Shown: positions 5,293 to 58,567 of the stretch, piece after piece
Layout of the letters: each line of letters begins with the position of its first letter
How positions within the stretch are numbered: the stretch's first letter is position 1
Translations under genes and position numbers: made by a program
Notes under the pieces: generated by a model
Databases searched by the model: none
The model's input: the letters and a program-made list of their open reading frames with translations, nothing else
What the model was told of the DNA's origin: nothing
Assembly (NCBI RefSeq): GCF_041886205.1
Contig: NZ_CP169030.1
DNA from: Escherichia coli
GTDB taxonomy: Bacteria > Pseudomonadota > Gammaproteobacteria > Enterobacterales > Enterobacteriaceae
DNA length: 64,000 nucleotides
Strand: one strand, 5' to 3'

Positions 5293-5940
5293 AACAATGA
5301 CTCCCTTCTGTCACTTCTACATATGTATATGATTCTTTTGATGTACACCGGTAAGTCAATTATCAGTACTTAATTTGTTTAGCTTTTGTTTAACCTAATA
5401 GTTTGTTTTTGTGAGGTATATCAATATATCTAAATGATATGCGGTAATGGTGTGTATGTCATCTGAACATTCTTTATGGATAGTCTGTATAGACAGAACT
5501 TAATGTTAACATGGCTATTTGTTTATATAGATAGTCATTTTTATCTTAATACATCTGGCACATTATCTATTTGATATACTGATATGGTTCTGTAATGAGG
5601 TAAGAGTTTAGCTACTAAATGGAGGGCCTGACGCAACTACAGGATATGAGGTGAAAATATCGTCCTGATATGGCATAGTGAAATATTATAGTCGCTTTCT
5701 TAACTTATCCGGGCCTGGATAAAGTCCTCAGTTTTTTCTGATGGATTGTTGGATTTTTTAAGATTTTTTTATCTTTTTACTTCAAAAAAGATCTTGTAAT
5801 TATTGCAGTAAGTTGCATTGATAATGATTTTGCTATTGTATACAAAAAAACAGACCTCATAGCATAGCACTTTTAAATTTGTATATTACAATATACATAA
5901 AAGTCATGTCAATTATCACTTAAGGTTTGTTAAAAATCAT

Positions 5941-41520: not shown

Positions 41521-41565
41521 TCGTCCGAATATCACCAGTCCCACTCCGGCCCTGCGAGGCCATGT

Positions 41566-41603
41566 GGGGGGAACCGCAGAATTCGGAAAAAATCGTACGC
41601 TAA
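41566..41603 (+). repeat. 38-bp terminal inverted repeat (mcp end) GGGGGAACCGCAGAATTCGGAAAAAATCGTACGCTAAG
   Basis: Read directly. Confidence 0.85.
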
Positions 41604-41755
41604 GCTAACGGTGTTCTCGTGACAGCTCTTTGACTAGGCTTTCTAAGGCCATTCTGATAGCCCTGACTTCCTGAAAAGCCATGGCTAAAATTTGTGCGGC
41701 TAAAAGGGATAACCGATGGTAAAGTAAGTTATCCCTGTCGAGATACTGAAAAGCG

Positions 41756-43333
41756 TTATCCTCGTTTTTCCCAAAACTGTTTTGCCAGTTCGCTCAGAGC
41801 GCTAGTTAACTGAGCGACAGATTTCGCACTTTGCAAATTATTCTGCCCGGTCTGTACATTGGTATCAGCAGCATCGCGTATATTGATAATACTGCGGTTT
41901 ATGTCTTCACTTACTGCTCCCTGCTGCTCGACCGCAGTCGCTATTTGCGCGTTCATGTCGGTAATTTCGTTAACGCGTTGGCCAATTCCATCAAGAGCTG
42001 TAGCTGCTTCCTCTGCGTGAGCTACACTCGTGTGCGCTTGCCGACTACTTTGCTCCATGACTGTAACAGCGGATTGCGCTCGCTCTTGTAGAGCGCTGAT
42101 CATGCTTTGAATATCCGTTGTCGATTGCTGTGTGCGAGCAGCAAGACTGCGAACCTCATCGGCGACAACAGCAAAACCACGCCCCTGCTCACCAGCACGC
42201 GCGGCCTCAATTGCTGCGTTGAGTGCCAACAAATTCGTTTGCTCGGCGATCCCTCGTATAACGTCAAGAACTTTTGATATCTCGTTACTTTGACCTTCAA
42301 GCTCATGAATAACCTGAGTGGCTTGCCTAATTTCACCTTCAAGGGCAGTGATTGACTGGCTTGTGTGGGCTACCAGACGCTGGCCAGATGCCGTCTCAGT
42401 GTCTGCTCTTCCGGCCGCATCTGCAGCATGCTGTGCATTGCTCGCAACCTCTTGAATGCTTGCCACCATTTGGTTTACTGCCGTTGCTATTTGATCTGTC
42501 TCTGCCTGCTGCTCAACTGTAAGTACATTGCTTGACTCAATATCCTTTAGTAGGCCTCGGGTGTGTTCGCTAAGCCGATTTGATGCATCACCTATGCGAC
42601 CTACTATGGCGCCTGTTTCAGCTTGCATCATTCGTAAAGCAAACTCTATTTGGCCAAACTCATCGGTGCGCCCAGTGTAGAGGGATTGACTTAATGGGTT
42701 ATTGGAAATATTCTTGGCTCTTTCAACCAGTCTTCCAAGAGGAGAGAGAATAGCCAAAACACTAACAGAGCTTAAGCTTCCTGACATTAAAGTGGCTAAC
42801 AATAAGCTGCTTATTGATGTATCAGTAAGCATGCCGGCAGCCATTGCGCTTGATATAATACTACCCCATATGAGCAAGAGTATTTTCACGGAAAAGCTAG
42901 CAGCCAATTTCGGCCTCGCGGCCTTCCCGCTTCTCAATTGAGCATATAATTTTTCCGCAGCCAAAACCTGCTCAGGTTCAGGCTTGGTCCTTACAGACTG
43001 GTATTCAACAATCGAACCATTCTTAGCTATTGGCGTTACATAAGCACTTACCCAATAGTGGTCGCCATTTTTACAGCGATTTTTTACTAGCCCCATCCAT
43101 GAGCGGCCAGATTTTAATGTACTCCACATATGCTCAAATGCAGCAGGCGGCATATCTGGGTGTCTTACGATGTTGTGAGGCTGGCCTAATAGTTCTTCCT
43201 CAGTGAAACCACTGATTTTAATGAAGTCAGGATTAACGTACGTGATATGGCTTTGAGGGGAGGTAGTCGAAAGAATATTGGCATCTTTTGGGAGTTCTAA
43301 GTTTCGACCCGTCACTGGTAAATTCTGGCGCAT
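41756..43333 (-). CDS. methyl-accepting chemotaxis protein with PAS domain (Tn1721 orfI-like)
   Basis: 525 aa; PAS-like N-terminus, transmembrane segments, MCP signalling domain. Confidence 0.8.
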
Positions 43334-43625
43334 AAGAACCTCAAGGGTTGGCTGTTTTATTTTATTGTTTTCGGCATTAAGCCCAATTTCTTGAGCGTTA
43401 CGATAAAGCTAGCATGGAAACGATAGGTGCAAGCAAGTTAAGGGTTGCATCGCGCATGTCAATCTAGGCTATACCCTAACTTGATGTCAGGCAGGGCCGC
43501 GCCGCTTCGTCAGAATAGAGTCTGCTTTCCCATTTTTTGACACATGCCCGCGAAGGTTATAGATTTCAGCCTGACAGAAATGGGCTTTGAGGCACAACGG
43601 AACAGAAAGTGCACTTAAGCCGCCT

Positions 43626-43650
43626 TGTCATTTTCAGAAGACGACTGCAC
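43626..43650 (+). repeat. Tn402 IRt (TGTCATTTTCAGAAGACGACTGCAC)
   Basis: Read directly. Confidence 0.85.
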
Positions 43651-43766
43651 CAGTTGATTGGGCGTAATGGCTGTTGTGCAGCCAGCTCCTGACAGTTCAA
43701 TATCAGAAGTGATCTGCACCAATCTCGACTATGCTCAATACTCGTGTGCACCAAAGCGAGGTGAGC

Positions 43767-45446
43767 ATGGCGACGGACACCCCACGGATTCCAGAACAAG
43801 GCGTGGCCACTCTGCCTGATGAGGCTTGGGAGCGTGCGCGCCGTCGTGCGGAGATCATCAGTCCGTTGGCGCAGTCGGAGACGGTCGGGCACGAAGCGGC
43901 CGATATGGCGGCTCAGGCGCTGGGCTTGTCTCGGCGCCAGGTATACGTTCTGATCCGGCGTGCCCGGCAAGGCAGCGGCCTCGTGACGGATCTGGTGCCC
44001 GGCCAGTCCGGTGGAGGTAAAGGTAAGGGGCGCTTGCCGGAACCGGTCGAGCGCGTCATCCACGAGCTACTGCAAAAGCGGTTCCTGACCAAGCAGAAGC
44101 GCAGCCTAGCGGCCTTTCACCGCGAAGTCACTCAGGTGTGCAAGGCTCAAAAACTGCGAGTGCCGGCGCGCAATACCGTGGCCTTACGGATCGCTAGCCT
44201 TGACCCGCGCAAGGTCATCCGCCGGCGGGAAGGCCAGGATGCCGCTCGTGACCTACAAGGTGTGGGCGGCGAGCCTCCTGCCGTGACCGCGCCGCTGGAG
44301 CAGGTGCAGATAGACCATACGGTCATCGACCTGATCGTGGTCGATGACCGCGACCGGCAACCTATTGGCCGCCCGTACCTGACCCTCGCCATCGACGTGT
44401 TCACCCGCTGCGTGCTCGGCATGGTCGTCACGCTGGAAGCGCCGTCTGCCGTTTCGGTTGGCCTGTGCCTCGTGCATGTCGCCTGCGACAAGCGCCCTTG
44501 GCTGGAAGGACTGAACGTGGAAATGGATTGGCAGATGAGCGGCAAGCCCTTGCTGCTCTACCTAGACAACGCGGCCGAGTTCAAGAGCGAGGCCCTGCGC
44601 CGGGGTTGCGAGCAGCATGGCATCCGGCTGGACTATCGCCCGCTGGGACAGCCGCACTATGGCGGCATCGTGGAACGGATCATCGGCACGGCGATGCAGA
44701 TGATTCACGACGAACTGCCGGGAACGACCTTCTCCAACCCTGACCAGCGCGGCGACTACGATTCCGAAAACAAGGCCGCCCTGACGCTGCGCGAGCTAGA
44801 GCGCTGGCTCACATTGGCGGTCGGCACCTACCACGGTTCGGTGCACAACGGCCTGCTCCAACCGCCGGCCGCGCGCTGGGCCGAGGCCGTGGCGCGTGTC
44901 GGCGTACCGGCCGTCGTCACACGCGCTACTTCGTTCCTGGTCGATTTTCTGCCGATCCTCCGGCGCACGCTGACCCGCACCGGCTTTGTCATCGACCACA
45001 TCCACTACTACGCCGATGCGCTCAAGCCGTGGATTGCGCGGCGTGAACGCTGGCCGTCCTTTCTGATCCGGCGCGATCCGCGCGACATCAGCCGTATCTG
45101 GGTCCTGGAACCGGAGGGACAGCATTACCTGGAAATTCCCTACCGTACCTTGTCGCATCCGGCTGTCACCCTCTGGGAACAACGGCAGGCGCTGGCGAAA
45201 CTGCGGCAGCAAGGGCGCGAACAGGTGGATGAGTCGGCGCTGTTCCGCATGATCGGCCAGATGCGTGAGATTGTGACCAGCGCGCAGAAGGCCACACGCA
45301 AGGCGCGGCGTGACGCGGATCGCCGCCAGCACCTCAAGACATCAGCTCGGCCGGACAAGCCCGTTCCGCCGGATACGGATATTGCCGACCCGCAGGCAGA
45401 CAACTTGCCACCCGCCAAACCGTTCGACCAGATTGAGGAGTGGTAG
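43767..45446 (+). CDS. tniA: TniA transposase (DDE)
   Basis: 559 aa starting MATDTPRIPEQG, as recalled for Tn402 TniA. Confidence 0.85.
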   Translation: MATDTPRIPEQGVATLPDEAWERARRRAEIISPLAQSETVGHEAADMAAQALGLSRRQVYVLIRRARQGSGLVTDLVPGQSGGGKGKGRLPEPVERVIHELLQKRFLTKQKRSLAAFHREVTQVCKAQKLRVPARNTVALRIASLDPRKVIRRREGQDAARDLQGVGGEPPAVTAPLEQVQIDHTVIDLIVVDDRDRQPIGRPYLTLAIDVFTRCVLGMVVTLEAPSAVSVGLCLVHVACDKRPWLEGLNVEMDWQMSGKPLLLYLDNAAEFKSEALRRGCEQHGIRLDYRPLGQPHYGGIVERIIGTAMQMIHDELPGTTFSNPDQRGDYDSENKAALTLRELERWLTLAVGTYHGSVHNGLLQPPAARWAEAVARVGVPAVVTRATSFLVDFLPILRRTLTRTGFVIDHIHYYADALKPWIARRERWPSFLIRRDPRDISRIWVLEPEGQHYLEIPYRTLSHPAVTLWEQRQALAKLRQQGREQVDESALFRMIGQMREIVTSAQKATRKARRDADRRQHLKTSARPDKPVPPDTDIADPQADNLPPAKPFDQIEEW

Positions 45447-46357
45447 CCGTGGACGAATATCCCATCATCGACCTGTCCCACCTGCTGCCGGCGGCCCAGG
45501 GCTTGGCCCGTCTTCCGGCGGACGAGCGCATCCAGCGCCTTCGCGCCGACCGCTGGATCGGCTATCCGCGCGCAGTCGAGGCGCTGAACCGGCTGGAAGC
45601 CCTTTATGCGTGGCCAAACAAGCAACGCATGCCCAACCTGCTGCTGGTTGGCCCGACCAACAATGGCAAGTCGATGATCGTCGAGAAGTTCCGCCGCACC
45701 CACCCGGCCAGCTCCGACGCCGACCAGGAGCACATCCCGGTGTTGGTCGTGCAGATGCCGTCCGAGCCGTCCGTGATCCGCTTCTACGTCGCGCTGCTCG
45801 CCGCGATGGGCGCGCCGCTGCGCCCACGCCCACGGTTGCCGGAAATGGAGCAACTGGCTCTGGCACTGCTGCGCAAGGTCGGCGTGCGCATGCTGGTGAT
45901 CGACGAGCTGCACAACGTGCTGGCCGGCAACAGCGTCAACCGCCGGGAATTCCTCAACCTGCTGCGCTTCCTCGGCAACGAACTGCGCATCCCGTTGGTT
46001 GGGGTAGGCACGCGCGACGCCTACCTAGCCATCCGCTCCGATGACCAGTTGGAAAATCGCTTCGAGCCGATGATGCTGCCGGTATGGGAGGCCAACGACG
46101 ATTGCTGCTCACTGCTGGCCAGCTTCGCCGCTTCGCTCCCGCTGCGCCGGCCTTCCCCAATTGCCACGCTGGACATGGCTCGCTACCTGCTCACACGCAG
46201 CGAGGGCACCATAGGGGAACTGGCGCACTTGCTGATGGCGGCGGCCATCGTCGCCGTGGAGAGCGGCGAGGAAGCGATCAACCATCGCACACTCAGCATG
46301 GCCGTTTACACCGGACCCAGCGAGCGGCGGCGGCAATTCGAGCGGGAACTGATGTGA
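45440..46357 (+). CDS. tniB: TniB ATP-binding protein
   Basis: Walker A GPTNNGKS; exact start codon uncertain. Confidence 0.8.
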   Translation: MVAVDEYPIIDLSHLLPAAQGLARLPADERIQRLRADRWIGYPRAVEALNRLEALYAWPNKQRMPNLLLVGPTNNGKSMIVEKFRRTHPASSDADQEHIPVLVVQMPSEPSVIRFYVALLAAMGAPLRPRPRLPEMEQLALALLRKVGVRMLVIDELHNVLAGNSVNRREFLNLLRFLGNELRIPLVGVGTRDAYLAIRSDDQLENRFEPMMLPVWEANDDCCSLLASFAASLPLRRPSPIATLDMARYLLTRSEGTIGELAHLLMAAAIVAVESGEEAINHRTLSMAVYTGPSERRRQFERELM

Positions 46358-47571
46358 AGCCTGCGCCGCGCTGGCCGCTGCATCCCGCCCCGAAAGAAGG
46401 CGAGGCGCTGTCCTCATGGCTCAACCGCGTGGCCCTTTGCTATCACATGGAGGAGCCCGACCTGCTGGAGCACGATCTTGGTCACGGCCAGGTCGATGAC
46501 CTGGACACCGCGCCACCACTCTCGCTGCTGGCGTTGCTTTCCCAGCGGAGCGGCATCGAGCTGGACCGGCTGCGCTGTATGAGTTTCGCCGGATGGGTGC
46601 CTTGGCTACTGGACAGCCTTGATGACCAGATTCCAGACGCCTTGGAAACCTATGCGTTTCAGCTCTCGGTGTTGCTGCCAAGACTCCGCCGTAAGACGCG
46701 ATCCATCACGAGCTGGCGTGCCTGGCTGCCCAGCCAGCCGATAAACCGCGCCTGTCCGCTCTGCCTGAGCGATCCGGAGAACCAAGCCGTACTGCTCGCG
46801 TGGAAGCTGCCCCTGATGCTGAGCTGCCCGCTGCATGGCTGCTGGCTGGAATCCTATTGGGGCGTGCCAGGGCGGTTTCTCGGCTGGGAGAACGCCGACG
46901 CCGAACCGCGCACCGCCAGCGACGCGATTGCGGCGATGGACCAGCGTACCTGGCAGGCACTGACAACCGGTCACGTGGAGCTGCCGCGCCGACGCATCCA
47001 CGCCGGATTGTGGTTTCGACTTCTTCGCACGCTGCTCGATGAGCTGAACACCCCGCTTTCCGCGTGCGGAACCTGCGCGGGGTATCCCCGCCAAGTCTGG
47101 GAAGGCTGCGGGCATCCGCTGCGTGCTGGGCAAAGTCTGTGGCGACCGTATGAAACCCTGAATCCGATAGTACGGTTACAGATGCTGGAGGCGGCGGCAA
47201 CGGCAATCAGCTTGATTGAGGTGAGGGACATCAGCCCGCCAGGCGAGCAGGCAAAGCTATTCTGGTCCGAGCCCCAAACCGGGTTCACCAGTGGCCTGCC
47301 GACGAAAGCGCCGAAGCCCGAGCCCATCAATCACTGGCAGCGTGCAGTCCAGGCCATCGACGAGGCCATCATTGAAGCGCGACACAACCCCGAGACGGCA
47401 CGCTCGCTGTTCGCGTTGGCTTCCTATGGTCGGCGCGATCCCGCTTCCTTGGAACGGTTGCGCGCCACCTTCGTGAAGGAAGGCATCCCGCCGGAATTTC
47501 TGTCACATTACCTGCCTGATGCACCCTTTGCATGTCTTAAACAAAATGACGGGTTAAGTGACAAATTTTGA
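46354..47571 (+). CDS. tniQ: TniQ
   Basis: 405 aa from GTG at 46354; ORF-track extension from 46084 judged spurious. Confidence 0.75.
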   Translation: MKPAPRWPLHPAPKEGEALSSWLNRVALCYHMEEPDLLEHDLGHGQVDDLDTAPPLSLLALLSQRSGIELDRLRCMSFAGWVPWLLDSLDDQIPDALETYAFQLSVLLPRLRRKTRSITSWRAWLPSQPINRACPLCLSDPENQAVLLAWKLPLMLSCPLHGCWLESYWGVPGRFLGWENADAEPRTASDAIAAMDQRTWQALTTGHVELPRRRIHAGLWFRLLRTLLDELNTPLSACGTCAGYPRQVWEGCGHPLRAGQSLWRPYETLNPIVRLQMLEAAATAISLIEVRDISPPGEQAKLFWSEPQTGFTSGLPTKAPKPEPINHWQRAVQAIDEAIIEARHNPETARSLFALASYGRRDPASLERLRATFVKEGIPPEFLSHYLPDAPFACLKQNDGLSDKF

Positions 47572-47617
47572 CGGATAGAGCTTTCCGGCTCACACTGTCA
47601 CATAATCGAACGTATAC

Positions 47618-48256
47618 GTGACGGGTGAAAAGGTGCTGATCGGCTACATGCGGGTATCGAAGGCGGACGGATCCCAGTCCACCAATTTGCAACGCGATGC
47701 GCTCATCGCCGCTGGTGTGAGCCTTGCGCACCTTTACGAGGATCTGGCCTCGGGCAGGCGCGATGATCGCCCAGGGTTGGCTGCTTGCCTGAAGGCGCTT
47801 CGTGAAGGGGACACGCTGATCGTGTGGAAGCTCGATCGGCTTGGCCGTGATCTGCGCCACCTGATCAACACCGTGCACGACCTAACTGCGCGTAGCGTGG
47901 GCCTGAAGGTCCTGACCGGTCACGGTGCGGCGGTCGACACGACGACTGCCGCCGGCAAGCTTGTGTTCGGTATTTTTGCCGCGCTGGCCGAGTTCGAGCG
48001 TGAGTTGATTTCCGAGCGAACAGTCGCTGGACTTATCTCGGCGCGCGCTCGCGGCAGGAAAGGGGGGCGCCCCTTCAAGATGACCGCCGCCAAGCTACGC
48101 CTGGCGATGGCCAGCATGGGGCAACCGGAAACCAAGGTGGGCGATCTCTGCGAAGAACTCGGGATTACCCGGCAGACGCTCTACCGGCACGTGTCGCCCA
48201 AGGGCGAACTGCGGCCAGACGGCGTAAAGCTGCTCTCCCTCGGTTCAGCCGCATAA
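47618..48256 (+). CDS. tniR: TniR (TniC) serine resolvase
   Basis: 212 aa; N-terminal LIGYMRVSKADGSQ serine-recombinase motif. Confidence 0.8.
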   Translation: MTGEKVLIGYMRVSKADGSQSTNLQRDALIAAGVSLAHLYEDLASGRRDDRPGLAACLKALREGDTLIVWKLDRLGRDLRHLINTVHDLTARSVGLKVLTGHGAAVDTTTAAGKLVFGIFAALAEFERELISERTVAGLISARARGRKGGRPFKMTAAKLRLAMASMGQPETKVGDLCEELGITRQTLYRHVSPKGELRPDGVKLLSLGSAA

Positions 48257-48460
48257 ATGGAGGCGACCTGGAACGGGGCGCTGTTCAGTGCGGCAACGAT
48301 CCGATTACCGGTGTCGACCCAGAGCAGCCGTAGAGCTTTTGGGAAAGCTGTCGTTCAACGTTTGACGTGAGGGGCCGCCGTAGCGGCGAAGCCGCGAAGG
48401 GAACCCGCAAGCGCAGCTTGTGGGCGGTCCCTCTCGACGGAATGGTTAGATGCGACCGTT

Positions 48461-48793
48461 TTAGTGAACACTTGCCTTAGATAGCAAGTTGAGCACAGCA
48501 ACGCCGCTGATAATGAAGCCGACACCAACAAATCCCCACATATCTAGTTTTTGACCATGCAAAACCCATGCAATCGCAGTGACCAAGACGATCCCGAGGC
48601 CCGACCAAACTGCGTAGGCGATTCCAACAGGAATCGATTTGAGTGTCAGCGACAGGAAATAAAAAGCAGCAGCGTATCCCGCTACGACGATAAAAGACGG
48701 TACTAACCTAGTAAAGCCCTCACTAGACTTGAGCGCAGAGGTTGCAATGACCTCAAAAATAATGGCCGTAGCCAGAAATAACCAATTTTTCAA
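48461..48793 (-). CDS. qac: SMR-family quaternary-ammonium efflux protein on a gene cassette (qacE-related, full length)
   Basis: 110 aa (TTG start) immediately downstream of attI1; intact SMR C-terminus ...[10 protein letters not shown] rather than the qacEdelta1 tail. Confidence 0.75.
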
Positions 48794-48895
48794 AATATTT
48801 CTCCATGGAGTTCCGCGAAGAAATTTTAGGTTCGATTTAAGAAAAAAAACAGTCTTGTTGCTGGCCGAAATTTGTGCGCACAGCAAAGCATCTAA

Positions 48896-48960
48896 CTTTG
48901 TTTTAGGGCGACTGCCCTGCTGCGTAACATCGTTGCTGCTCCATAACATCAAACATCGAC
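48896..48960 (-). promoter_or_regulatory. attI1 integron recombination site (copy 1, intact)
   Basis: GCCCTAAAACAAAG|TTA junction read on minus strand at 48893-48909. Confidence 0.65.
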
Positions 48961-49031
48961 CCACGGCGTAACGCGCTTGCTGCTTGGATGCCCGAGGCAT
49001 AGACTGTACAAAAAAACAGTCATAACAAGCC

Positions 49032-50045
49032 ATGAAAACCGCCACTGCGCCGTTACCACCGCTGCGTTCGGTCAAGGTTCTGGACCAGTTGCGTGAGCGC
49101 ATACGCTACTTGCATTACAGTTTACGAACCGAACAGGCTTATGTCCACTGGGTTCGTGCCTTCATCCGTTTCCACGGTGTGCGTCACCCGGCAACCTTGG
49201 GCAGCAGCGAAGTCGAGGCATTTCTGTCCTGGCTGGCGAACGAGCGCAAGGTTTCGGTCTCCACGCATCGTCAGGCATTGGCGGCCTTGCTGTTCTTCTA
49301 CGGCAAGGTGCTGTGCACGGATCTGCCCTGGCTTCAGGAGATCGGAAGACCTCGGCCGTCGCGGCGCTTGCCGGTGGTGCTGACCCCGGATGAAGTGGTT
49401 CGCATCCTCGGTTTTCTGGAAGGCGAGCATCGTTTGTTCGCCCAGCTTCTGTATGGAACGGGCATGCGGATCAGTGAGGGTTTGCAACTGCGGGTCAAGG
49501 ATCTGGATTTCGATCACGGCACGATCATCGTGCGGGAGGGCAAGGGCTCCAAGGATCGGGCCTTGATGTTACCCGAGAGCTTGGCACCCAGCCTGCGCGA
49601 GCAGCTGTCGCGTGCACGGGCATGGTGGCTGAAGGACCAGGCCGAGGGCCGCAGCGGCGTTGCGCTTCCCGACGCCCTTGAGCGGAAGTATCCGCGCGCC
49701 GGGCATTCCTGGCCGTGGTTCTGGGTTTTTGCGCAGCACACGCATTCGACCGATCCACGGAGCGGTGTCGTGCGTCGCCATCACATGTATGACCAGACCT
49801 TTCAGCGCGCCTTCAAACGTGCCGTAGAACAAGCAGGCATCACGAAGCCCGCCACACCGCACACCCTCCGCCACTCGTTCGCGACGGCCTTGCTCCGCAG
49901 CGGTTACGACATTCGAACCGTGCAGGATCTGCTCGGCCATTCCGACGTCTCTACGACGATGATTTACACGCATGTGCTGAAAGTTGGCGGTGCCGGAGTG
50001 CGCTCACCGCTTGATGCGCTGCCGCCCCTCACTAGTGAGAGGTAG
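49032..50045 (+). CDS. intI1: class 1 integron integrase IntI1 (copy 1)
   Basis: 337 aa; matches recalled IntI1 sequence. Confidence 0.95.
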
Positions 50046-50222
50046 GGCAGCGCAAGTCAATCCTGGCGGATTCACTACCCCTGCGCGAAGGCCATCGGTG
50101 CCGCATCGAACGGCCGGTTGCGGAAAGTCCTCCCTGCGTCCGCTGATGGCCGGCAGCAGCCCGTCGTTGCCTGATGGATCCAACCCCTCCGCTGCTATAG
50201 TGCAGTCGGCTTCTGACGTTCA

Positions 50223-50247
50223 GTGCAGCCGTCTTCTGAAAACGACA
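50223..50247 (+). repeat. Tn402 IRi (internal copy)
   Basis: GTGCAGCCGTCTTCTGAAAACGACA read directly. Confidence 0.85.
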
Positions 50248-50329
50248 TTTGAACCGGGAACCTTCCCTTTTTGGCTAGGCGTGAAACAATGGTCATTTTC
50301 CCTATACCCAAAATGACCAGGAGGCCCGC

Positions 50330-50407
50330 ATGAAAGTCGCACGCATCTACCTGCGCGTGAGCACGGAGGAACAAGACCTAAGCCGGCAGGATGCCATCGT
50401 GGAGAGC
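50330..50407 (+). pseudogene. 5' fragment of a serine resolvase gene (MKVARIYLRVSTEEQDLSRQDAIVES), truncated by the 88-bp repeat
   Basis: 26 codons with serine-recombinase N-terminal motif, then abrupt junction. Confidence 0.5.
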
Positions 50408-50495
50408 TTAAATAAGACCGTCCCGTAAATTTCAGCCGAATCCGACAAAAAGGCGTGAAGATTTCCTTTAAATAGAGAGACCGAAGGTCATCCTT
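50408..50495 (+). repeat. 88-bp direct repeat flanking the tet(M) segment, copy 1
   Basis: TTAAATAAGACCGTCCCGTAAATTTCAGCCGAATCCGACAAAAAGGCGTGAAGATTTCCTTTAAATAGAGAGACCGAAGGTCATCCTT; identical at 52999-53086. Confidence 0.85.
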
Positions 50496-50968
50496 TTCCT
50501 AAAAAAGGGGGGGGCCATGGTTCCAAGATGTAAAATCGAGGGCTAATTCAGGCTATACTTGAACTATCCTTAATGGAATCTTTAGCCAGCGGTATCAACG
50601 AAGCAAGAAACATCGAAGACTAATTAAAAGAATCCATACATAACGGAAAGAGCCGATAAAATGAGATTGTATTAATCTCATTTTATCGGCTCTGCGTCTT
50701 TGCGTCTGGCTCTGTAATCGCAGTTACTTTGAACTGCTTTATTTCAATTAAATTTTCTTGTCTGCATTTCGGACAATAGAGGGGGAATTTTTTTAATTCA
50801 GTATCTTCCCTTATCTTTAATCGTGTTTTATTTCCACATACAGGACACAATATCCACTTGTAGTTTATAATAACTATCTCCTCCTTTACACTTTAATTCA
50901 AATCTTTATTAAAAAATATTTCATCTTATTTAACAAGAAACCATATTTATATAACAACATAAAATACA

Positions 50969-52888
50969 CTAAGTTATTTTATTGAACATATATCGTACTT
51001 TATCTATCCGACTATTTGGACGACGGGGCTGGCAAACAGGTTCACCGGTAGTAACATGGTACCCTTTTAACTCTGTTAAACAAACACTACGTCCATTTGT
51101 AAAGAAAGTTAAATCACTACGATATTCTTGAATACACCGAGCAGGGATTTCTCCACTAAGAATGACCTCATTATTTTTCAATTGAGTGTCTACGATGTTC
51201 GCACAATATTTAGGAGCATCGTTGTATGCTCGTGAAAGATATTCCTGTGGCGCATAAATTTTAAAACTAAGATATGGCTCTAACAATTCTGTTCCAGCTT
51301 TTTTTAAGACTTGTTCCAATACAATAGGAGCAAGCATCCGAAAATCTGCTGGGGTACTAACAGGGCTATAGTATAAGCCATACTTAAAACAGATTTTACA
51401 GTCCGTCACATTCCAACCATACAATCCTTGTTCACAGCCATAGCGTATCCCTTCCATAACTGCATTTTGAAATGATTGATTTAAGTATCCAAGAGAAACC
51501 GAGCTCTCATACTGCATTCCACTTCCCAACGGAAGCGGTGATACAGATAAACCAATGGAAGCCCAGAAAGGATTTGGCGGCACTTCGATGTGAATGGTAT
51601 ATTCTGCATTTTTTAACGGTCTCTCCATATAAATGACTGTAGGCTCTTTTAGTTCTATCTCCACATGATACTTTTCTTGCAACAGTGCACTAATCACTTC
51701 CATTTGTACTTTCCCTAAGAAAGAAAGTATAATTTCATGTGTCGTAGAATCCACGTAATATCGTAGAAGCGGATCACTATCTGAGATTTCCAAAAGGGCA
51801 TCAAGCAACATTTCTCTCTGTTCAGGTTTACTCGGTTCAACAGTTGTTTGTAGTAGAGGGTGCGGATTTTCAATCTTTTTTCTCTGTGGCAATAGTTTTG
51901 TATCTCCAAGAACACTATTTAACTTCAAAAACTCATTTTGCAAAATAACAATTTCCCCGGAATAAGCCTTATCGATTTTACATAATTCACCATTTATTGA
52001 AGTATACATTTCTGTAATTTTTATTTTTTCCTTTTCCGATATTCTAACCGAATCTCGCAAATGCAGTACGCCACTATAAAGACGTATATATGCAAGACGT
52101 TGTCTTTTTTTTGTATATTCAATTTTGAAAACATTTCCGCAAAGTTCAGACTGACCTCGATGTGTTGATGAATAAAATTTATTCGTAATCACTTCTATAA
52201 GGTTATCAATCCCTATATTGTTTTTTGCACTTCCATGATAAAGAGGGAACAGAGAACAATTCTGAAATCTTATGCTTTCCTCTTGTTCGAGTTCCAATGC
52301 TTCTAATGATTTACCGGACATATATTTCTCTAAAAGGTCATCGTTTCCCTCTATTACCGTATCCCATTGTTCAGATTCGGTAAAGTTCGTCACACACATA
52401 TTAGGATACAGTTCTACCTTCTGTTTGATTACAATTTCGGCAGAAAGTTTCTCTTTAATATCCTGATAAACCGTTGATAAATCAATTCCATTTTGGTCAA
52501 TCTTATTGATAAAAAAGATTGTGGGAATCCCCATTTTCCTAAGTGCATGAAATAATATACGAGTTTGTGCTTGTACGCCATCTTTTGCAGAAATCAGTAG
52601 AATTGCCCCATCTAAAACTGATAATGAACGATATACTTCTGCTAAGAAATCCATATGTCCTGGCGTGTCTATGATGTTCACCTTCGTATTTTCCCACTGA
52701 AAAGAGGTTATTCCTGTCTGAATTGTAATTCCTCTCTGACGTTCTAAAAGCGTATTATCCGTCCTCGTTGTACCTTTGTCCACGCTTCCTAATTCTGTAA
52801 TCGCTCCACTGTTATATAATAAGCTTTCTGTTAAGGTAGTTTTTCCCGCATCAACATGAGCTAAAACTCCAATATTAATAATTTTCAT
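50969..52888 (-). CDS. tet(M): Tet(M) ribosomal-protection tetracycline resistance protein
   Basis: 639 aa from [39 protein letters not shown]...; translational GTPase fold; very close to recalled Tet(M). Confidence 0.95.
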
Positions 52889-52903
52889 GTGATTTTCCTC
52901 CAT

Positions 52904-52990
52904 TCAAAAGCCCAAAAGGGCATAAAAATCCCAGTGATAAATACTCTTATCACTGGGATTTTTATGCATAACCATAGGCATACAAAGCAT
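52904..52990 (-). CDS. tet(M) leader peptide (Tn916 orf12-like attenuation leader)
   Basis: 28 codons MLCMPMVMHKNPSDKSIYHWDFYALLGF directly upstream of tet(M). Confidence 0.7.
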   Translation of the reverse strand: MLCMPMVMHKNPSDKSIYHWDFYALLGF

Positions 52991-52998
52991 ACAGATAT

Positions 52999-53086
52999 TT
53001 AAATAAGACCGTCCCGTAAATTTCAGCCGAATCCGACAAAAAGGCGTGAAGATTTCCTTTAAATAGAGAGACCGAAGGTCATCCTT
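52999..53086 (+). repeat. 88-bp direct repeat flanking the tet(M) segment, copy 2
   Basis: Identical to 50408-50495. Confidence 0.85.
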
Positions 53087-53131
53087 GAAGAAGGAGTCCT
53101 CGGTGAGATTCAGAATGCCGAACACCGTCAC
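53087..53131 (-). pseudogene. sul1: sul1 5' fragment (codons 2-16: VTVFGILNLTEDSFF) fused to truncated attI1
   Basis: Minus-strand GTGACGGTGTTCGGCATTCTGAATCTCACCGAGGACTCCTTCTTC matches recalled sul1 start; joined at ...CAGCAGG|GTGACGG. Confidence 0.7.
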
Positions 53132-53247
53132 CCTGCTGCGTAACATCGTTGCTGCTCCATAACATCAAACATCGACCCACGGCGTAACGCGCTTGCTGCT
53201 TGGATGCCCGAGGCATAGACTGTACAAAAAAACAGTCATAACAAGCC

Positions 53248-54261
53248 ATGAAAACCGCCACTGCGCCGTTACCACCGCTGCGTTCGGTCAAGGTTCTGGA
53301 CCAGTTGCGTGAGCGCATACGCTACTTGCATTACAGCTTACGAACCGAACAGGCTTATGTCCACTGGGTTCGTGCCTTCATCCGTTTCCACGGTGTGCGT
53401 CACCCGGCAACCTTGGGCAGCAGCGAAGTCGAGGCATTTCTGTCCTGGCTGGCGAACGAGCGCAAGGTTTCGGTCTCCACGCATCGTCAGGCATTGGCGG
53501 CCTTGCTGTTCTTCTACGGCAAGGTGCTGTGCACGGATCTGCCCTGGCTTCAGGAGATCGGAAGACCTCGGCCGTCGCGGCGCTTGCCGGTGGTGCTGAC
53601 CCCGGATGAAGTGGTTCGCATCCTCGGTTTTCTGGAAGGCGAGCATCGTTTGTTCGCCCAGCTTCTGTATGGAACGGGCATGCGGATCAGTGAGGGTTTG
53701 CAACTGCGGGTCAAGGATCTGGATTTCGATCACGGCACGATCATCGTGCGGGAGGGCAAGGGCTCCAAGGATCGGGCCTTGATGTTACCCGAGAGCTTGG
53801 CACCCAGCCTGCGCGAGCAGCTGTCGCGTGCACGGGCATGGTGGCTGAAGGACCAGGCCGAGGGCCGCAGCGGCGTTGCGCTTCCCGACGCCCTTGAGCG
53901 GAAGTATCCGCGCGCCGGGCATTCCTGGCCGTGGTTCTGGGTTTTTGCGCAGCACACGCATTCGACCGATCCACGGAGCGGTGTCGTGCGTCGCCATCAC
54001 ATGTATGACCAGACCTTTCAGCGCGCCTTCAAACGTGCCGTAGAACAAGCAGGCATCACGAAGCCCGCCACACCGCACACCCTCCGCCACTCGTTCGCGA
54101 CGGCCTTGCTCCGCAGCGGTTACGACATTCGAACCGTGCAGGATCTGCTCGGCCATTCCGACGTCTCTACGACGATGATTTACACGCATGTGCTGAAAGT
54201 TGGCGGTGCCGGAGTGCGCTCACCGCTTGATGCGCTGCCGCCCCTCACTAGTGAGAGGTAG
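53248..54261 (+). CDS. intI1: class 1 integron integrase IntI1 (copy 2)
   Basis: Identical 337-aa translation to copy 1; at least one silent nucleotide difference (49121 T vs 53337 C). Confidence 0.95.
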
Positions 54262-54438
54262 GGCAGCGCAAGTCAATCCTGGCGGATTCACTACCCCTGC
54301 GCGAAGGCCATCGGTGCCGCATCGAACGGCCGGTTGCGGAAAGTCCTCCCTGCGTCCGCTGATGGCCGGCAGCAGCCCGTCGTTGCCTGATGGATCCAAC
54401 CCCTCCGCTGCTATAGTGCAGTCGGCTTCTGACGTTCA

Positions 54439-54463
54439 GTGCAGCCGTCTTCTGAAAACGACA
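54439..54463 (+). repeat. Tn402 IRi (outer copy) followed by target duplication CGCCT
   Basis: Read directly. Confidence 0.85.
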
Positions 54464-54485
54464 CGCCTTCAACCAAGGAGACATC

Positions 54486-55046
54486 GTGCAGGGGCACCGC
54501 ATCGGCTACGTCCGGGTCAGCAGCTTTGACCAGAACCCGGAACGCCAGCTGGAACAAACCCAGGTGAGCAAGGTGTTCACCGACAAGGCATCGGGCAAGG
54601 ACACCCAGCGCCCCCAGCTCGAAGCGCTGCTGAGCTTCGTCCGCGAAGGCGATACAGTGGTGGTGCACAGCATGGATCGGCTGGCCCGCAACCTCGATGA
54701 CCTGCGTCGCTTGGTACAGAAGCTGACTCAGCGCGGCGTGCGCATCGAGTTCCTGAAGGAGGGCCTGGTGTTCACTGGCGAGGACTCGCCGATGGCCAAC
54801 CTGATGCTGTCGGTGATGGGGGCCTTCGCTGAGTTCGAGCGCGCCCTGATCCGCGAGCGGCAGCGTGAGGGCATCGCCTTGGCCAAGCAGCGTGGCGCGT
54901 ACCGGGGCCGCAAGAAAGCCCTGTCCGATGAGCAGGCTGCTACCCTGCGGCAGCGAGCGACGGCCGGCGAGCCCAAGGCGCAGCTTGCCCGCGAGTTCAA
55001 CATCAGCCGGGAAACCCTCTACCAGTACCTCCGCACGGACGACTGA
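54486..55046 (+). CDS. tnpR: Tn3-family serine resolvase TnpR
   Basis: 186 aa MQGHRIGYVRVSSFDQNPERQ...; IRi lies only 22 bp upstream, i.e. within the expected res region. Confidence 0.9.
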   Translation: MQGHRIGYVRVSSFDQNPERQLEQTQVSKVFTDKASGKDTQRPQLEALLSFVREGDTVVVHSMDRLARNLDDLRRLVQKLTQRGVRIEFLKEGLVFTGEDSPMANLMLSVMGAFAEFERALIRERQREGIALAKQRGAYRGRKKALSDEQAATLRQRATAGEPKAQLAREFNISRETLYQYLRTDD

Positions 55047-55049
55047 CAC

Positions 55050-58016
55050 ATGCCGCGTCGCTTGATCCTCTCGGCCACGGAGCGGGACACCCTGCTTGCG
55101 CTGCCGGAAAGCCAGGATGACCTGATCCGCTACTACACCTTCAACGACTCCGACCTGTCGCTGATCCGCCAGCGACGCGGCGACGCCAACCGCCTCGGCT
55201 TCGCCGTGCAGCTCTGCCTGCTGCGCTACCCCGGTTACGCGCTGGGAACCGACAGCGAGCTGCCCGAGCCGGTCATCCTGTGGGTGGCGAAGCAAGTCCA
55301 GGCCGAGCCGGCGAGCTGGGCAAAGTACGGCGAGCGCGACGTGACCCGTCGCGAGCATGCCCAGGAACTGCGCACCTACCTGCAACTGGCCCCGTTCGGC
55401 CTGTCCGACTTCCGCGCCCTGGTGCGCGAGCTAACCGAGCTGGCCCAGCAGACCGACAAAGGCTTGCTGCTGGCCGGTCAGGCCCTGGAGAGCCTACGGC
55501 AGAAACGACGCATCCTGCCGGCGCTGAGCGTGATTGACCGGGCCTGCTCGGAAGCCATTGCGCGAGCCAATCGGCGGGTCTACCGCGCCCTGGTCGAACC
55601 ACTCACGGACTCGCATCGGGCCAAGCTGGACGAGCTGTTGAAGCTCAAGGCCGGCAGCAGCATCACCTGGTTGACCTGGCTGCGCCAGGCACCGCTGAAA
55701 CCCAACTCTCGGCACATGCTGGAACACATCGAGCGGCTGAAGACATTTCAGTTGGTGGACTTGCCCGAAGGCCTGGGCCGGCACATCCACCAGAACCGCC
55801 TGCTCAAGCTGGCCCGCGAGGGTGGGCAGATGACGCCCAAAGACCTCGGTAAGTTCGAGCCGCAGCGCCGCTACGCGACCCTGGCCGCCGTGGTGCTGGA
55901 GAGCACCGCGACCGTGATCGATGAGCTGGTCGATCTGCATGACCGCATCCTGGTCAAGCTGTTCAGCGGCGCGAAGCACAAGCATCAGCAGCAGTTCCAG
56001 AAGCAGGGCAAGGCGATCAACGACAAGGTGCGCCTGTACTCCAGGATCGGCCAGGCGCTGCTGGAAGCGAAGGAAAGCGGCAGCGACCCCTATGCCGCCA
56101 TCGAGGCGGTGATTCCCTGGGACGAGTTCACCGAGAGCGTCAGCGAGGCCGAGCTGCTGGCCCGGCCGGAAGGCTTCGACCACCTGCACCTGGTCGGCGA
56201 GAACTTCGCCACCCTGCGCCGTTACACGCCGGCCTTGCTGGAGGTGCTGGAACTGCGCGCCGCGCCGGCCGCGCAAGGCGTGCTGGCAGCCGTGCAGACC
56301 CTGCGTGAGATGAACGCCGACAACCTGCGCAAGGTGCCGGCCGATGCACCCACGGCCTTCATCAAGCCGCGCTGGAAGCCGCTGGTGATCACCCCGGAAG
56401 GCCTCGACCGGAAATTCTACGAAATCTGCGCCCTGTCCGAGCTGAAGAACGCCCTGCGCTCCGGCGACATCTGGGTCAAGGGCTCGCGGCAGTTCCGCGA
56501 CTTCGACGACTACCTGCTGCCGGCCGAGAAGTTCGCCGCACTCAAGCGCGAGCAGGCCCTGCCCCTGGCGATCAACCCGAACAGCGACCAGTACCTGGAA
56601 GAGCGTTTGCAGCTGCTGGACGAGCAGTTGGCCACCGTCACCCGCCTGGCCAAGGACAACGAGCTGCCCGATGCCATCCTCACCGAGTCAGGGCTGAAAA
56701 TCACCCCGCTGGATGCGGCGGTGCCGGATCGGGCGCAGGCGCTGATCGACCAAACCAGCCAGTTACTGCCGCGCATCAAGATCACCGAACTGCTGATGGA
56801 CGTGGACGACTGGACGGGCTTCAGCCGCCACTTCACCCACTTGAAGGACGGGGCCGAGGCCAAAGACAGGACGTTGCTGCTGTCCGCAATCCTCGGTGAT
56901 GCGATCAACCTCGGGCTGACCAAGATGGCCGAGTCGAGCCCCGGCCTGACCTACGCCAAGCTGTCCTGGCTGCAAGCCTGGCACATCCGCGACGAAACCT
57001 ATTCGGCGGCCTTGGCCGAGCTGGTCAACCACCAGTATCGCCACGCCTTTGCCGCCCACTGGGGCGACGGCACGACCTCATCCTCCGATGGCCAGCGCTT
57101 CCGCGCGGGTGGCCGGGGCGAGAGCACCGGGCACGTCAACCCGAAGTACGGTAGCGAGCCGGGACGGCTGTTCTATACCCATATCTCCGACCAGTACGCG
57201 CCGTTCAGCACCCGCGTGGTGAATGTCGGCGTCCGCGATTCCACCTATGTGCTCGACGGCCTGCTGTACCACGAGTCCGACCTGCGGATCGAGGAGCACT
57301 ACACCGACACGGCCGGCTTCACCGATCACGTCTTTGCCCTGATGCACCTGCTAGGCTTCCGCTTCGCGCCGCGCATCCGCGACCTCGGCGAAACCAAGCT
57401 GTACGTGCCGCAGGGCGTGCAAGCCTACCCGACGTTGCGCCCGCTGATCGGCGGCACCCTGAACATCAAGCACGTGCGTGCCCACTGGGACGACATCCTG
57501 CGCCTGGCCAGCTCGATCAAGCAGGGCACCGTCACCGCCTCGCTGATGCTGCGCAAGCTCGGCAGCTACCCGCGCCAGAACGGACTGGCCGTGGCCCTGC
57601 GCGAGCTGGGCCGGATCGAGCGCACGCTGTTCATCCTGGACTGGCTGCAAAGTGTTGAACTGCGCCGCCGCGTGCATGCCGGCCTGAACAAAGGTGAGGC
57701 GCGCAACTCGCTGGCCAGGGCGGTGTTCTTCAACCGCCTTGGGGAAATCAGGGATCGGAGCTTCGAGCAGCAGCGCTACCGGGCCAGCGGCCTCAACCTG
57801 GTGACGGCGGCTATCGTGCTGTGGAACACGGTGTACCTGGAACGCGCCACCCAGGGGTTGGTCGAGGCCGGCAAGCCGGTGGACGGCGAGCTGCTGCAAT
57901 TCCTGTCGCCGCTGGGCTGGGAGCACATCAACCTAACCGGCGATTACGTCTGGCGGCAGAGCCGCAGACTGGAAGACGGGAAGTTTCGGCCCTTACGGAT
58001 GCCCGGAAAACCTTAG
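55050..58016 (+). CDS. tnpA: Tn3-family transposase TnpA
   Basis: 988 aa; reads toward the terminal inverted repeat. Confidence 0.9.
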
Positions 58017-58049
58017 CGTACGATTTTTTCCGAATTCTGCGGGCTCCCC
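58012..58049 (-). repeat. 38-bp terminal inverted repeat (tnpA end) GGGGAGCCCGCAGAATTCGGAAAAAATCGTACGCTAAG
   Basis: Read directly as reverse complement; overlaps tnpA stop. Confidence 0.85.
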
Positions 58050-58567
58050 TTGTTTGTACGATTCGATATCGATACTGCGTAATGGCCGGTACTTCCCTGT
58101 ACCCAGCTTAAGATTATTACGCCAGACATCATCCCCATTAAGATTGATATGCTCCCAGCCCAACGGCGAAAGGTGAGTGCAGTTGGTCATTAATCGGGAG
58201 CTTTTTTCGTTTCAGGGACTCAATGGCTCTTTCTATGTATACCGTGTTCCATAATTTTTCACTCCGTTGAAAACGGAGTACGTGGCAATCGTATCAGTGA
58301 TACAGTTGAGGCAATTGACACGAATACCCTTTCCGGTATTGATGGCATCAGTTGAAGAGCATGTTATTCTCTTGAGCTATTTGTGCCACACAGGCGCGGG
58401 GGGCGTTTTTTACCACGGGGACTTCGGGCATAAAAACAAGGGGCCGCAAACACGGCCCTTAATTCAGATCTAACCGGGTACGCTATCTGTTGCCCTGGAA
58501 AATTGATCTGACAACTCAGTAAAGATCAATACGGTTCTGACGAGCAGCTTACCTGCCTGTTTGCGTT

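Follow-up and report, generated by a model that had tools for sequence, protein, structure and literature searches.

Direct repeats around a Tn916-derived tet(M) in Escherichia coli as predicted oriIS-side ends of an unnamed ISCR-type element

How a tetracycline resistance gene of the kind carried by Tn916 in Firmicutes came to lie between two perfect direct repeats on an enterobacterial plasmid is the question raised by positions 50408-53086 of a 64,000-nucleotide stretch of Escherichia coli DNA (contig NZ_CP169030.1, assembly GCF_041886205.1), the whole of which is referred to here as the window. A preliminary description of this locus reported a Tn916-type tet(M) of 639 amino acids (aa) with an intact leader peptide, placed it within a class 1 integron on an enterobacterial replicon, and considered the flanking 88-bp repeats to be no recognised ends of an insertion sequence (IS), by which the unit could nevertheless move or be lost. 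The explanation that we regard as probable, taken as a whole, is that the repeats are oriIS ends of ISCR type bracketing a Tn916 fragment, that ISCR-type capture was followed by entry into an integron, and that tet(M) is transcribed by read-through from the integron promoter Pc.

The anatomy of the locus already separates the repeats from the DNA that they enclose. The two copies, at 50408-50495 and 52999-53086 on the plus strand, are identical at 88/88 positions, as first described, and lie in direct orientation 2,591 bp apart, a match for which chance is negligible. Copy 1 forms the first 88 bp of a complete 153-bp unit (50408-50560, plus strand; termed R153) that ends in CTATACTT and does not belong to Tn916; copy 2 is the first 88 bp of a second R153 that has been cut short. 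Alignment of the junctions places an internal Tn916 fragment of 2,438 bp (50561-52998, minus strand) between them, the end of R153 being followed by GAACTATCC on the left and CAGATAT by TTAAATAAG on the other side. The fragment includes the last 63 bp of orf9 (50561-50623, plus strand), orf6/KTR (50683-50850, minus strand), an open 639-codon tet(M) (50969-52888, minus strand), the intact 28-codon reading frame of the leader orf12 (52904-52990, minus strand), and the intact Tn916 attenuator hairpin (52920-52967). A scan of 50300-53200 against Rfam returned a partial match to the Enterococcus sRNA_0030 over the retained Tn916 leader.

Matches to Tn916-type DNA of Firmicutes are confined to 50561-52998, at 99.1-99.2% identity, and the Tet(M) protein is residue-for-residue that of complete Tn916 elements in Firmicute chromosomes; the assignment to Tn916 is thereby borne out, and inactivating mutations, for which the gene was checked, are accordingly not present. 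Tn916, an integrative and conjugative element (ICE), is the source of the cargo DNA and shares with it orf6, orf12, and the attenuator. Only 2.4 of its 18 kb are represented here, however, and the fragment lacks int/xis, the conjugation genes, the promoter Ptet, and the ends of the element. When the exact Tet(M) protein was looked up, complete Tn916 with Xis and Int was seen only in Firmicute loci, and the lookup returned only these elements and the known enterobacterial structure, with no environmental intermediate.

The identity of the repeats was approached through the distribution of R153 across a plasmid collection, species-representative genomes, and metagenomes. Outside the tet(M) plasmids it occurs once in the plasmid collection, in Acinetobacter baumannii pABF9692, where it adjoins tet(X)/estT. 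With the same two borders it is present at 100% identity in metagenome-assembled genomes (MAGs) of Oligoflexia, Saprospiraceae, and Flavobacterium, and at 91-94% in a MAG of Bacteriovorax stolpii; no copy was found in viral contigs. Overall, identities of 91-100% are seen across MAG, metagenome, and plasmid contigs, and it is the 153 bp that recurs, not the 88 bp alone. All loci together provide 20 distinct sequences on the left of the unit and 17 distinct sequences on its right.

What ties this unit to a transposable element is its constant position relative to one gene. In 14/14 loci that carry the gene, R153 starts 44 bp downstream of the stop codon of a 462-aa ISCR-like transposase, a Y2 HUH protein with an N-terminal zinc-binding domain according to Pfam (Zn_Tnp_IS91 and Y2_Tnp) and one that matches the NCBIfam models ISCR_clade_Ia (E 8.5e-90) and transpos_IS91 (E 1.7e-33). 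It shares 38% aa identity with the transposase of ISCR1 over 96% of its length, and its best plasmid relatives are of ISCR1 type; across 72,556 plasmids, no protein exceeds 39% aa identity to it. Identical copies of the transposase are listed for 350 assembly blocks, a complete chromosome of 3.77 Mb among them. The resulting element measures 1,789 bp and consists, in order, of a terIS side, the 462-aa transposase gene, a 44-bp spacer, and the 153-bp end, a layout that can be set beside that described for ISCR elements in general (PMC13393415).

Both borders of the source element are sharp. Its right border, ...CAGGCTATACTT, lies 197 nt past the transposase stop in all loci with the gene, and the DNA beyond it differs in nine of the ten loci that carry exactly the same transposase, giving nine different sequences; variable DNA past a sharp right border is the signature of an ISCR oriIS, and the right boundary of ISCR1 was verified by the same approach. 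The left border, CATTCGTTTTGAG..., is situated 203 bp upstream of the ATG and is flanked by GAAC, AAAC, TAGT, or TAAT. Neither terminal inverted repeats (TIRs) nor target-site duplications (TSDs) were found at the borders of the source element. These comparisons identify the 88-bp repeats as ends of ISCR type, from the predicted oriIS side, one complete at 153 bp and the other cut at 88 bp, with an internal Tn916 fragment as the cargo between them. The source element itself would be a member of the ISCR family that is distinct from ISCR1, ISCR2, and ISCR28 and as yet unnamed, with environmental Bdellovibrionota and Bacteroidota as its natural hosts.

The earlier view that the repeats are not the ends of a recognised IS is therefore superseded, since they represent the end of an insertion element from the ISCR (IS91) family, the same family to which ISVsa3 (ISCR2) belongs. 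A match to an end of the IS26 or ISVsa type, which the preliminary description had named as an outcome that would refute its reading, was found in kind, through the ISCR family, but not in the particular member, which is unnamed and 38% identical to ISCR1 in its transposase. As sources of the repeats, the ends of IS26 and ISVsa3 gave no match, and R153 is not repeated inside the ISVsa3-containing locus L002. No description of R153 emerged from literature on the 88-bp repeat with Tn916 in E. coli, on pABF9692, and on the MAG accessions, within sources that did not extend to the original account of tet(M) in E. coli (Jones et al. 2006, J Bacteriol 188:7151). Within the searched sources, both the recognition of the repeats as an ISCR end and the existence of same-orientation arrays with fixed 153-bp solo ends are undescribed.

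In its environmental hosts the element appears as the head of an array. The 1,789-bp element is followed by modules in the same orientation, each composed of cargo and a 153-bp end; all solo units follow an ISCR copy on its downstream side and point the same way, and contigs with several copies hold them only as direct repeats. The cargo consists mostly of resistance genes, among them tet(X) with a fabF-like gene and genes for an exporter of the CmlA/FloR family, for enzymes resembling Mph and Lnu(H), for a beta-lactamase of class D (OXA), and for AadA-like enzymes, a streptothricin-acetyltransferase-like GNAT, an ABC-F protein, DHFR, and a Sul-like protein. Two metagenome contigs start and finish inside R153 and represent either cargo bounded by two units or circles. 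In the native element, the position of the solo unit's left border lies inside a perfect hairpin (CGGTC|TT-AAAT-AAGACCG), and the last base of the left flank is C in 16 of 20 contexts and a pyrimidine in all 20; the hairpin is a possible internal termination or nick site. More tentatively, R153 may be the working module of an undescribed gene-capture system of ISCR type, in which a minimal oriIS unit would be freed by termination at the hairpin, would seed itself beside genes, would pick these up by one-ended rolling-circle transposition, and would stack them behind the master element, all in one orientation, an idea that we consider open to real doubt.

Several further features of these loci deserve mention. 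The resistance genes in the arrays (L009, L013-L016, and L019-L027) are divergent relatives of clinical ones that score far under NCBIfam allele cut-offs, including Mph(E)/(G)-family, Lnu(H)-like, class D beta-lactamase, CmlA/FloR-family, ABC-F, and CPT-like sequences. Directly left of the ISCR-like element, a segment of about 125 bp (approximately 5670-5797) stands in opposite orientations in loci L020/L023 and in locus L021; it is bounded by the inverted repeats AATGGTTCC/GGAACCATT, which take in the initial bases of the element's left end, looks invertible or palindromic, and adjoins aadA-like genes. Serine-recombinase (Resolvase) genes lie 1-3 kb from the element or its arrays in most environmental loci (L020, L021, L024-L028, and L009); Tn402 targets res regions. 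In the Bacteriovorax stolpii MAG (L004 at 129-281, 1284-1395, and 2627-2740, and L011), some of the diverged R153 copies are cut short or internally deleted, and they sit between ordinary chromosomal genes such as those for lipoproteins and pilin-like proteins. Because these copies are diverged, partly cut, and placed among ordinary genes, they suggest a long residence of R153 and its MITE-like spread in that lineage (MITE, miniature inverted-repeat transposable element).

Two other readings of R153 have to be weighed against its derivation from the end of an ISCR element. R153 could be a site-specific recombination site of the res or att type, used by the nearby serine recombinases and linked only incidentally to the transposase. 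The proximity of resolvase genes, within a few kb in most environmental loci, agrees with this, as does the reassortment of R153 flanks in all combinations, the same left flank occurring with different right flanks and the reverse. Such reassortment is equally explained, however, by homologous recombination between R153 copies that are 100% identical, and a recombination site alone cannot yield sharp junctions with some 20 unrelated sequences at both ends. Nor does R153 contain dyad symmetry of the res type or internal repeats, its predicted fold is no better than that of shuffled sequences, and its position 44 bp after the transposase gene is fixed, so that we regard a recombination site as improbable.

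The discrete borders and many contexts of R153, the diverged copies in ordinary chromosomal surroundings of the Bacteriovorax MAG, and the preference of the left flank for pyrimidines and especially for C would also be compatible with an independent MITE or a small structured RNA gene that favours sites beside the ISCR-like gene and resistance genes. Against such an independent existence stand the strict co-orientation of R153 with the transposase gene and the constant spacing between them. R153 has no Rfam match and gives folding z-scores of +0.8 and +2.4 on its two strands, again no better than shuffles; moreover, neither TIRs nor a TSD could be found at the 20 left and 17 right R153 junctions, on which ground the MITE reading was rejected. 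R153 is also without similarity to the left end of the ISCR-like element and is therefore not a two-ended deletion derivative of it, a candidate that was discarded when the left end scored 14-16 against a null 95th percentile of 22. An independent MITE or RNA gene thus seems to us to have little probability, with the reservation that this reading overlaps the derivation from an ISCR end if the same transposase mobilises R153 in trans.

Taking R153 as the oriIS-side end of the ISCR-type element, a capture history of the tet(M) unit can be proposed. An ISCR end would have inserted in the tet(M) leader region of a Tn916, and one-ended rolling-circle transposition from that end, the most likely route, would have carried tet(M)-orf6-orf9' along. 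The 2.4-kb piece of Tn916 would then have landed after another ISCR end, so that it became cargo between two sequential oriIS ends, and this sandwich would have entered a broad-host-range plasmid, within its parA gene and next to a class 1 integron. There, the second end may have lost its distal 65 bp in an illegitimate join to a remnant of sul1 and the 5' conserved segment (5'-CS). Homologous recombination in intI1/5'-CS would finally have transferred the structure into a Tn402-like integron within a TnAs1/Tn1721-like transposon, making the 4,216-bp segment now found between two copies of intI1.

The last of these steps is written in the surroundings of the unit. A 1,333-bp direct repeat comprising 5'-CS, intI1, and the inverted repeat IRi is present on the plus strand at 48915-50247 (copy A; intI1 at 49032-50045 with the PcH1 promoter variant, IRi at 50223-50247) and at 53131-54463 (copy B; intI1 at 53248-54261, IRi at 54439-54463), and the segment between the two copies, 4,216 bp long, is the one that holds tet(M). 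The copies differ by a single mismatch, T/C at 49121/53337, which is the Pc -10 base and distinguishes PcH1 in copy A from PcW in copy B. The 5-bp target duplication of Tn402, CGCCT, occurs at 43621-43625 and 54464-54468 and hence pairs IRt with IRi copy B, spanning both intI1 copies, and pSH111_166 carries an equivalent transposon with one intI1 and no tet(M) that matches 41567-50247 and 53131-58050. From this duplication and this tet(M)-less counterpart it is concluded that an integron already in place took up the 4,216-bp segment through homologous recombination in intI1/5'-CS. Exchange between the copies is also indicated: carrier lineages (L001, L034, L038, L040) differ in which intI1 copy has which Pc allele, and one lineage has PcH1 in both; such swaps imply crossover or gene conversion between the 1,333-bp copies.

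The junctions of the segment indicate what the unit was joined to. To the right of IRi copy A lies a foreign flank (50248-50407, plus strand), of which 50248-50362 also adjoins IRi in about 195 IncU, IncP-6, and other plasmids and 50330-50407 is the start of a parA-type resolvase gene, 26 codons long up to the break at 50407. On the other side, a 44-bp remnant of the 3' conserved segment (3'-CS), nucleotides 5-48 of sul1 (53087-53130, minus strand), matches sul1 in locus L017 exactly and is joined to copy B, in which the 5'-CS is cut inside attI1 with loss of the crossover site and attI gives only a sub-threshold Rfam match. No attC-like inverted repeat flanks tet(M), and the adjacent attI1, cut at 53131, offers no crossover site; to judge from its sul1' and parA' junctions, the unit is not a class 1 gene cassette. 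Its placement within a class 1 integron on an enterobacterial replicon thus holds insofar as it adjoins integron DNA on an enterobacterial plasmid, but it lies between two intI1 copies rather than among cassettes, joined to a parA fragment on one side and to a 44-bp sul1 fragment on the other. Neither IS26 nor any other complete IS bounds the unit in the window. The sul1 remnant begins at sul1 nucleotide 4-5 in two separate joins, 53130/53131 here and 8723/8724 in locus L003, its partner being the cut 5'-CS in the former and, in pEGYMCR_IncHI2, a 19-bp remnant of the IS26 left inverted repeat (IRL) followed by mef(B)-delta.

The whole structure is carried by a Tn3-family transposon like TnAs1/Tn1721 (41567-58049, plus strand), delimited by reading its 38-bp terminal inverted repeats at 41567-41604 and 58012-58049. 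The 5 bp outside these repeats differ (ATGTG at 41562-41566 and TTGTT at 58050-58054), and there is therefore no intact target duplication of this transposon in the plasmid. Its tnpR (54486-55046) and tnpA (55050-58016), both on the plus strand, were placed from the annotation of identical DNA. The first part of the Tn402-like class 1 integron (43626-50247, plus strand) starts with IRt (43626-43650) and continues with tniA/B/Q/R (43731-48256) and a qacG2 cassette (48464-48793, minus strand), beyond which attI1 and intI1 copy A follow.

How tet(M) might be expressed in this setting depends on what was lost at its upstream junction. Tn916 homology ends 8-9 nt upstream of the leader ATG, and transcription from Ptet in Tn916 starts 171 nt upstream of that codon (bioRxiv 10.1101/2021.03.24.436905); the unit has consequently lost the promoter together with about 160 nt of leader RNA and the GGAG Shine-Dalgarno sequence of the leader. 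The reported intact leader peptide is correct for the orf12 reading frame and the attenuator but overstates the case, as promoter and ribosome-binding site are gone; it also says little about function, since abolishing the leader ATG is reported to have left the minimum inhibitory concentration in E. coli unchanged (bioRxiv 10.1101/2021.03.24.436905). No sigma-70-like site was found on the coding strand between Pc and tet(M), either by a scanning tool or by our own scan, and a promoter inside the 88-bp repeat or the sul1 remnant was rejected on the same result. PcW of intI1 copy B (-35 at 53363-53358, -10 at 53340-53335, minus strand; P2 inactive) is directed towards tet(M) on the same strand, 345 nt ahead of the leader. 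Given the missing Ptet and the lack of a sigma-70-like site in the intervening DNA, PcW is the best promoter candidate, and tet(M) is most likely transcribed by read-through from it, with the Tn916 terminator/attenuator still in the transcript.

A number of observations weigh against parts of this explanation. The 462-aa transposase scores under the curated NCBIfam cut-offs for the named ISCR and IS91 models, and the tetranucleotide of IS91 type, GTTC/CTTG, is not consistently present at the right border of the element. When anchored at their ends, the terminus of R153 and the oriIS of ISCR1 (GGTTTATACTTCCTATACCC) agree at 12/20 positions, a weak similarity against a background maximum of 11/20, even if both end in CTATAC plus 2 nt. 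The precise bounds of the 153-bp solo units are a variant feature for which the explanation does not account. A non-enterobacterial contig with the Tn916 fragment between complete R153 units or beside the transposase was not found, and the capture step is thus unobserved. As to the predicted expression from Pc, pEGYMCR_IncHI2 has the same tet(M) unit with no Pc upstream, and PcW is a weak promoter.

In enterobacteria the arrangement is widespread and uniform. The region 50200-53300 is 99.8-100% identical in at least 17 plasmids of E. coli and Salmonella from cattle, veal, pork, pigs, and humans, and the window from 40000 to 64000 is 100% identical to the E. coli JML285 plasmid AP024116.1. Among complete E. 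coli genomes the tet(M) region was found in 8/5,426, always plasmid-borne; it is also present in three NCBI records of 4.9-5.6 Mb. The sequence 50408-53130 is byte-identical beside arrays as different as qacG2/tni, dfrA1-aadA1, dfrA17-aadA5, and one of sul3 type, in plasmids and chromosomes. The enterobacterial arrangement is already known from numerous sequenced records, and as a multiresistance region it is ordinary. One chromosomal carrier, L040, shows a 6-bp deletion (ATAGAG) in its first repeat copy, near position 7500 of the reverse complement and corresponding to 50479-50484 of the window; NZ_MZ666126, at 96.2% identity, may be the same variant.

Whether the 88-bp repeats themselves mobilise or destabilise the unit, by looping out a 2,591-bp circle that reinserts or is lost, can be judged from the same carriers. 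Perfect identity over 88 bp suffices for low-frequency recombination by RecA, and the repeats are perfect in most carriers. Yet exactly two copies are present in 18/18 enterobacterial plasmids and 8/8 complete E. coli genomes with the sequence, and neither the one-copy scar nor the amplified three-copy form was seen among them. The outer junctions of the unit, parA' on the left and sul1' on the right, are constant, from which it follows that it has not reinserted elsewhere by itself, and the deletion in L040 implies that repeat identity is not maintained. The 1,333-bp intI1 repeats, moreover, offer a recombination substrate 15-fold longer, for which there is evidence of exchange. Movement or loss through the 88-bp repeats, as originally envisaged, has left no sign, and we hold it to be very unlikely. 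With no IS91-like transposase in the window, the tet(M) unit in enterobacteria looks non-autonomous and passive, and it would move by recombination in 5'-CS, by Tn3-family transposition, and by plasmid conjugation.

Comparison with better known systems shows which of these features are shared. A close parallel is ISCR28, for which sandwich capture of armA between two sequential oriIS ends was proposed (Yuan et al. 2024, Int J Antimicrob Agents 64:107250, as related in PMC12772301). Both in that account and at the present locus, successive oriIS ends enclose a resistance gene, one end being a remnant that has no transposase, and rolling-circle capture is invoked; here, in contrast, another element is involved, the 153-bp remnant has precise borders and also occurs solo in arrays, and the enclosed fragment derives from an ICE of Gram-positive bacteria. 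ISCR1 is likewise of the IS91 family; its oriIS is placed some 200 bp past the transposase gene, its right boundary is sharp, and variable resistance genes lie beyond, and the complex class 1 integrons with which it is associated are similarly tied to sul1/3'-CS DNA and spread by homologous recombination through conserved integron segments. Unlike the element considered here, ISCR1 is not known to form fixed-length solo oriIS units, within the checks made; it is absent from the window, no transposase accompanies R153 in enterobacteria, and the two oriIS sequences are only weakly alike (12/20).

The tet(X) modules of ISCR2 (ISVsa3) in Acinetobacter and Enterobacterales resemble the tet(M) unit as tetracycline-resistance modules linked to a rolling-circle IS and of environmental (Bacteroidota) origin. 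ISVsa3, tet(X)/estT, and one solo R153 occur in the same region of pABF9692, but R153 is not part of ISVsa3 and derives from the other ISCR-like element. Enterobacterial multiresistance regions have also received tet(M) in the IS26-bounded E. coli transposons Tn6539, Tn7124, and Tn6942 (PMC6340991, PMC11539080). These likewise contain Tn916-derived leader peptide and tet(M) DNA, but they retain some of orf13 ahead of the leader and have IS26 on both sides, whereas the present unit is cut 8-9 nt before the ATG and bounded by ISCR ends. The IS26-linked tet(M) record H19 matched part of the query only, at 96.8% identity, and in pEGYMCR_IncHI2 a 19-bp remnant of an IS26 end adjoins the tet(M) unit.

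The analysis offers a concrete and checkable route by which a Tn916 fragment would have passed into an environmental ISCR array, from there to a broad-host-range plasmid next to an integron, then to the TnAs1/integron platform, and so to E. coli and Salmonella of food animals. In these plasmids tet(M) is carried along as a passenger of the integron 5'-CS, able to pass from one integron to another by homologous recombination, and for its transcription it probably relies on the integron promoter. As a 153-bp marker, R153 connects the tet(M) unit with tet(X) modules as well as with the resistance genes in ISCR arrays of wastewater-type metagenomes, a large pool of which most is still unseen, and these arrays may be a reservoir of new variants of resistance genes. 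If the tentative gene-capture system is real, integron-like arrays in predatory and environmental bacteria would already be the source from which tet(M) reached E. coli and Salmonella and from which Acinetobacter received tet(X).

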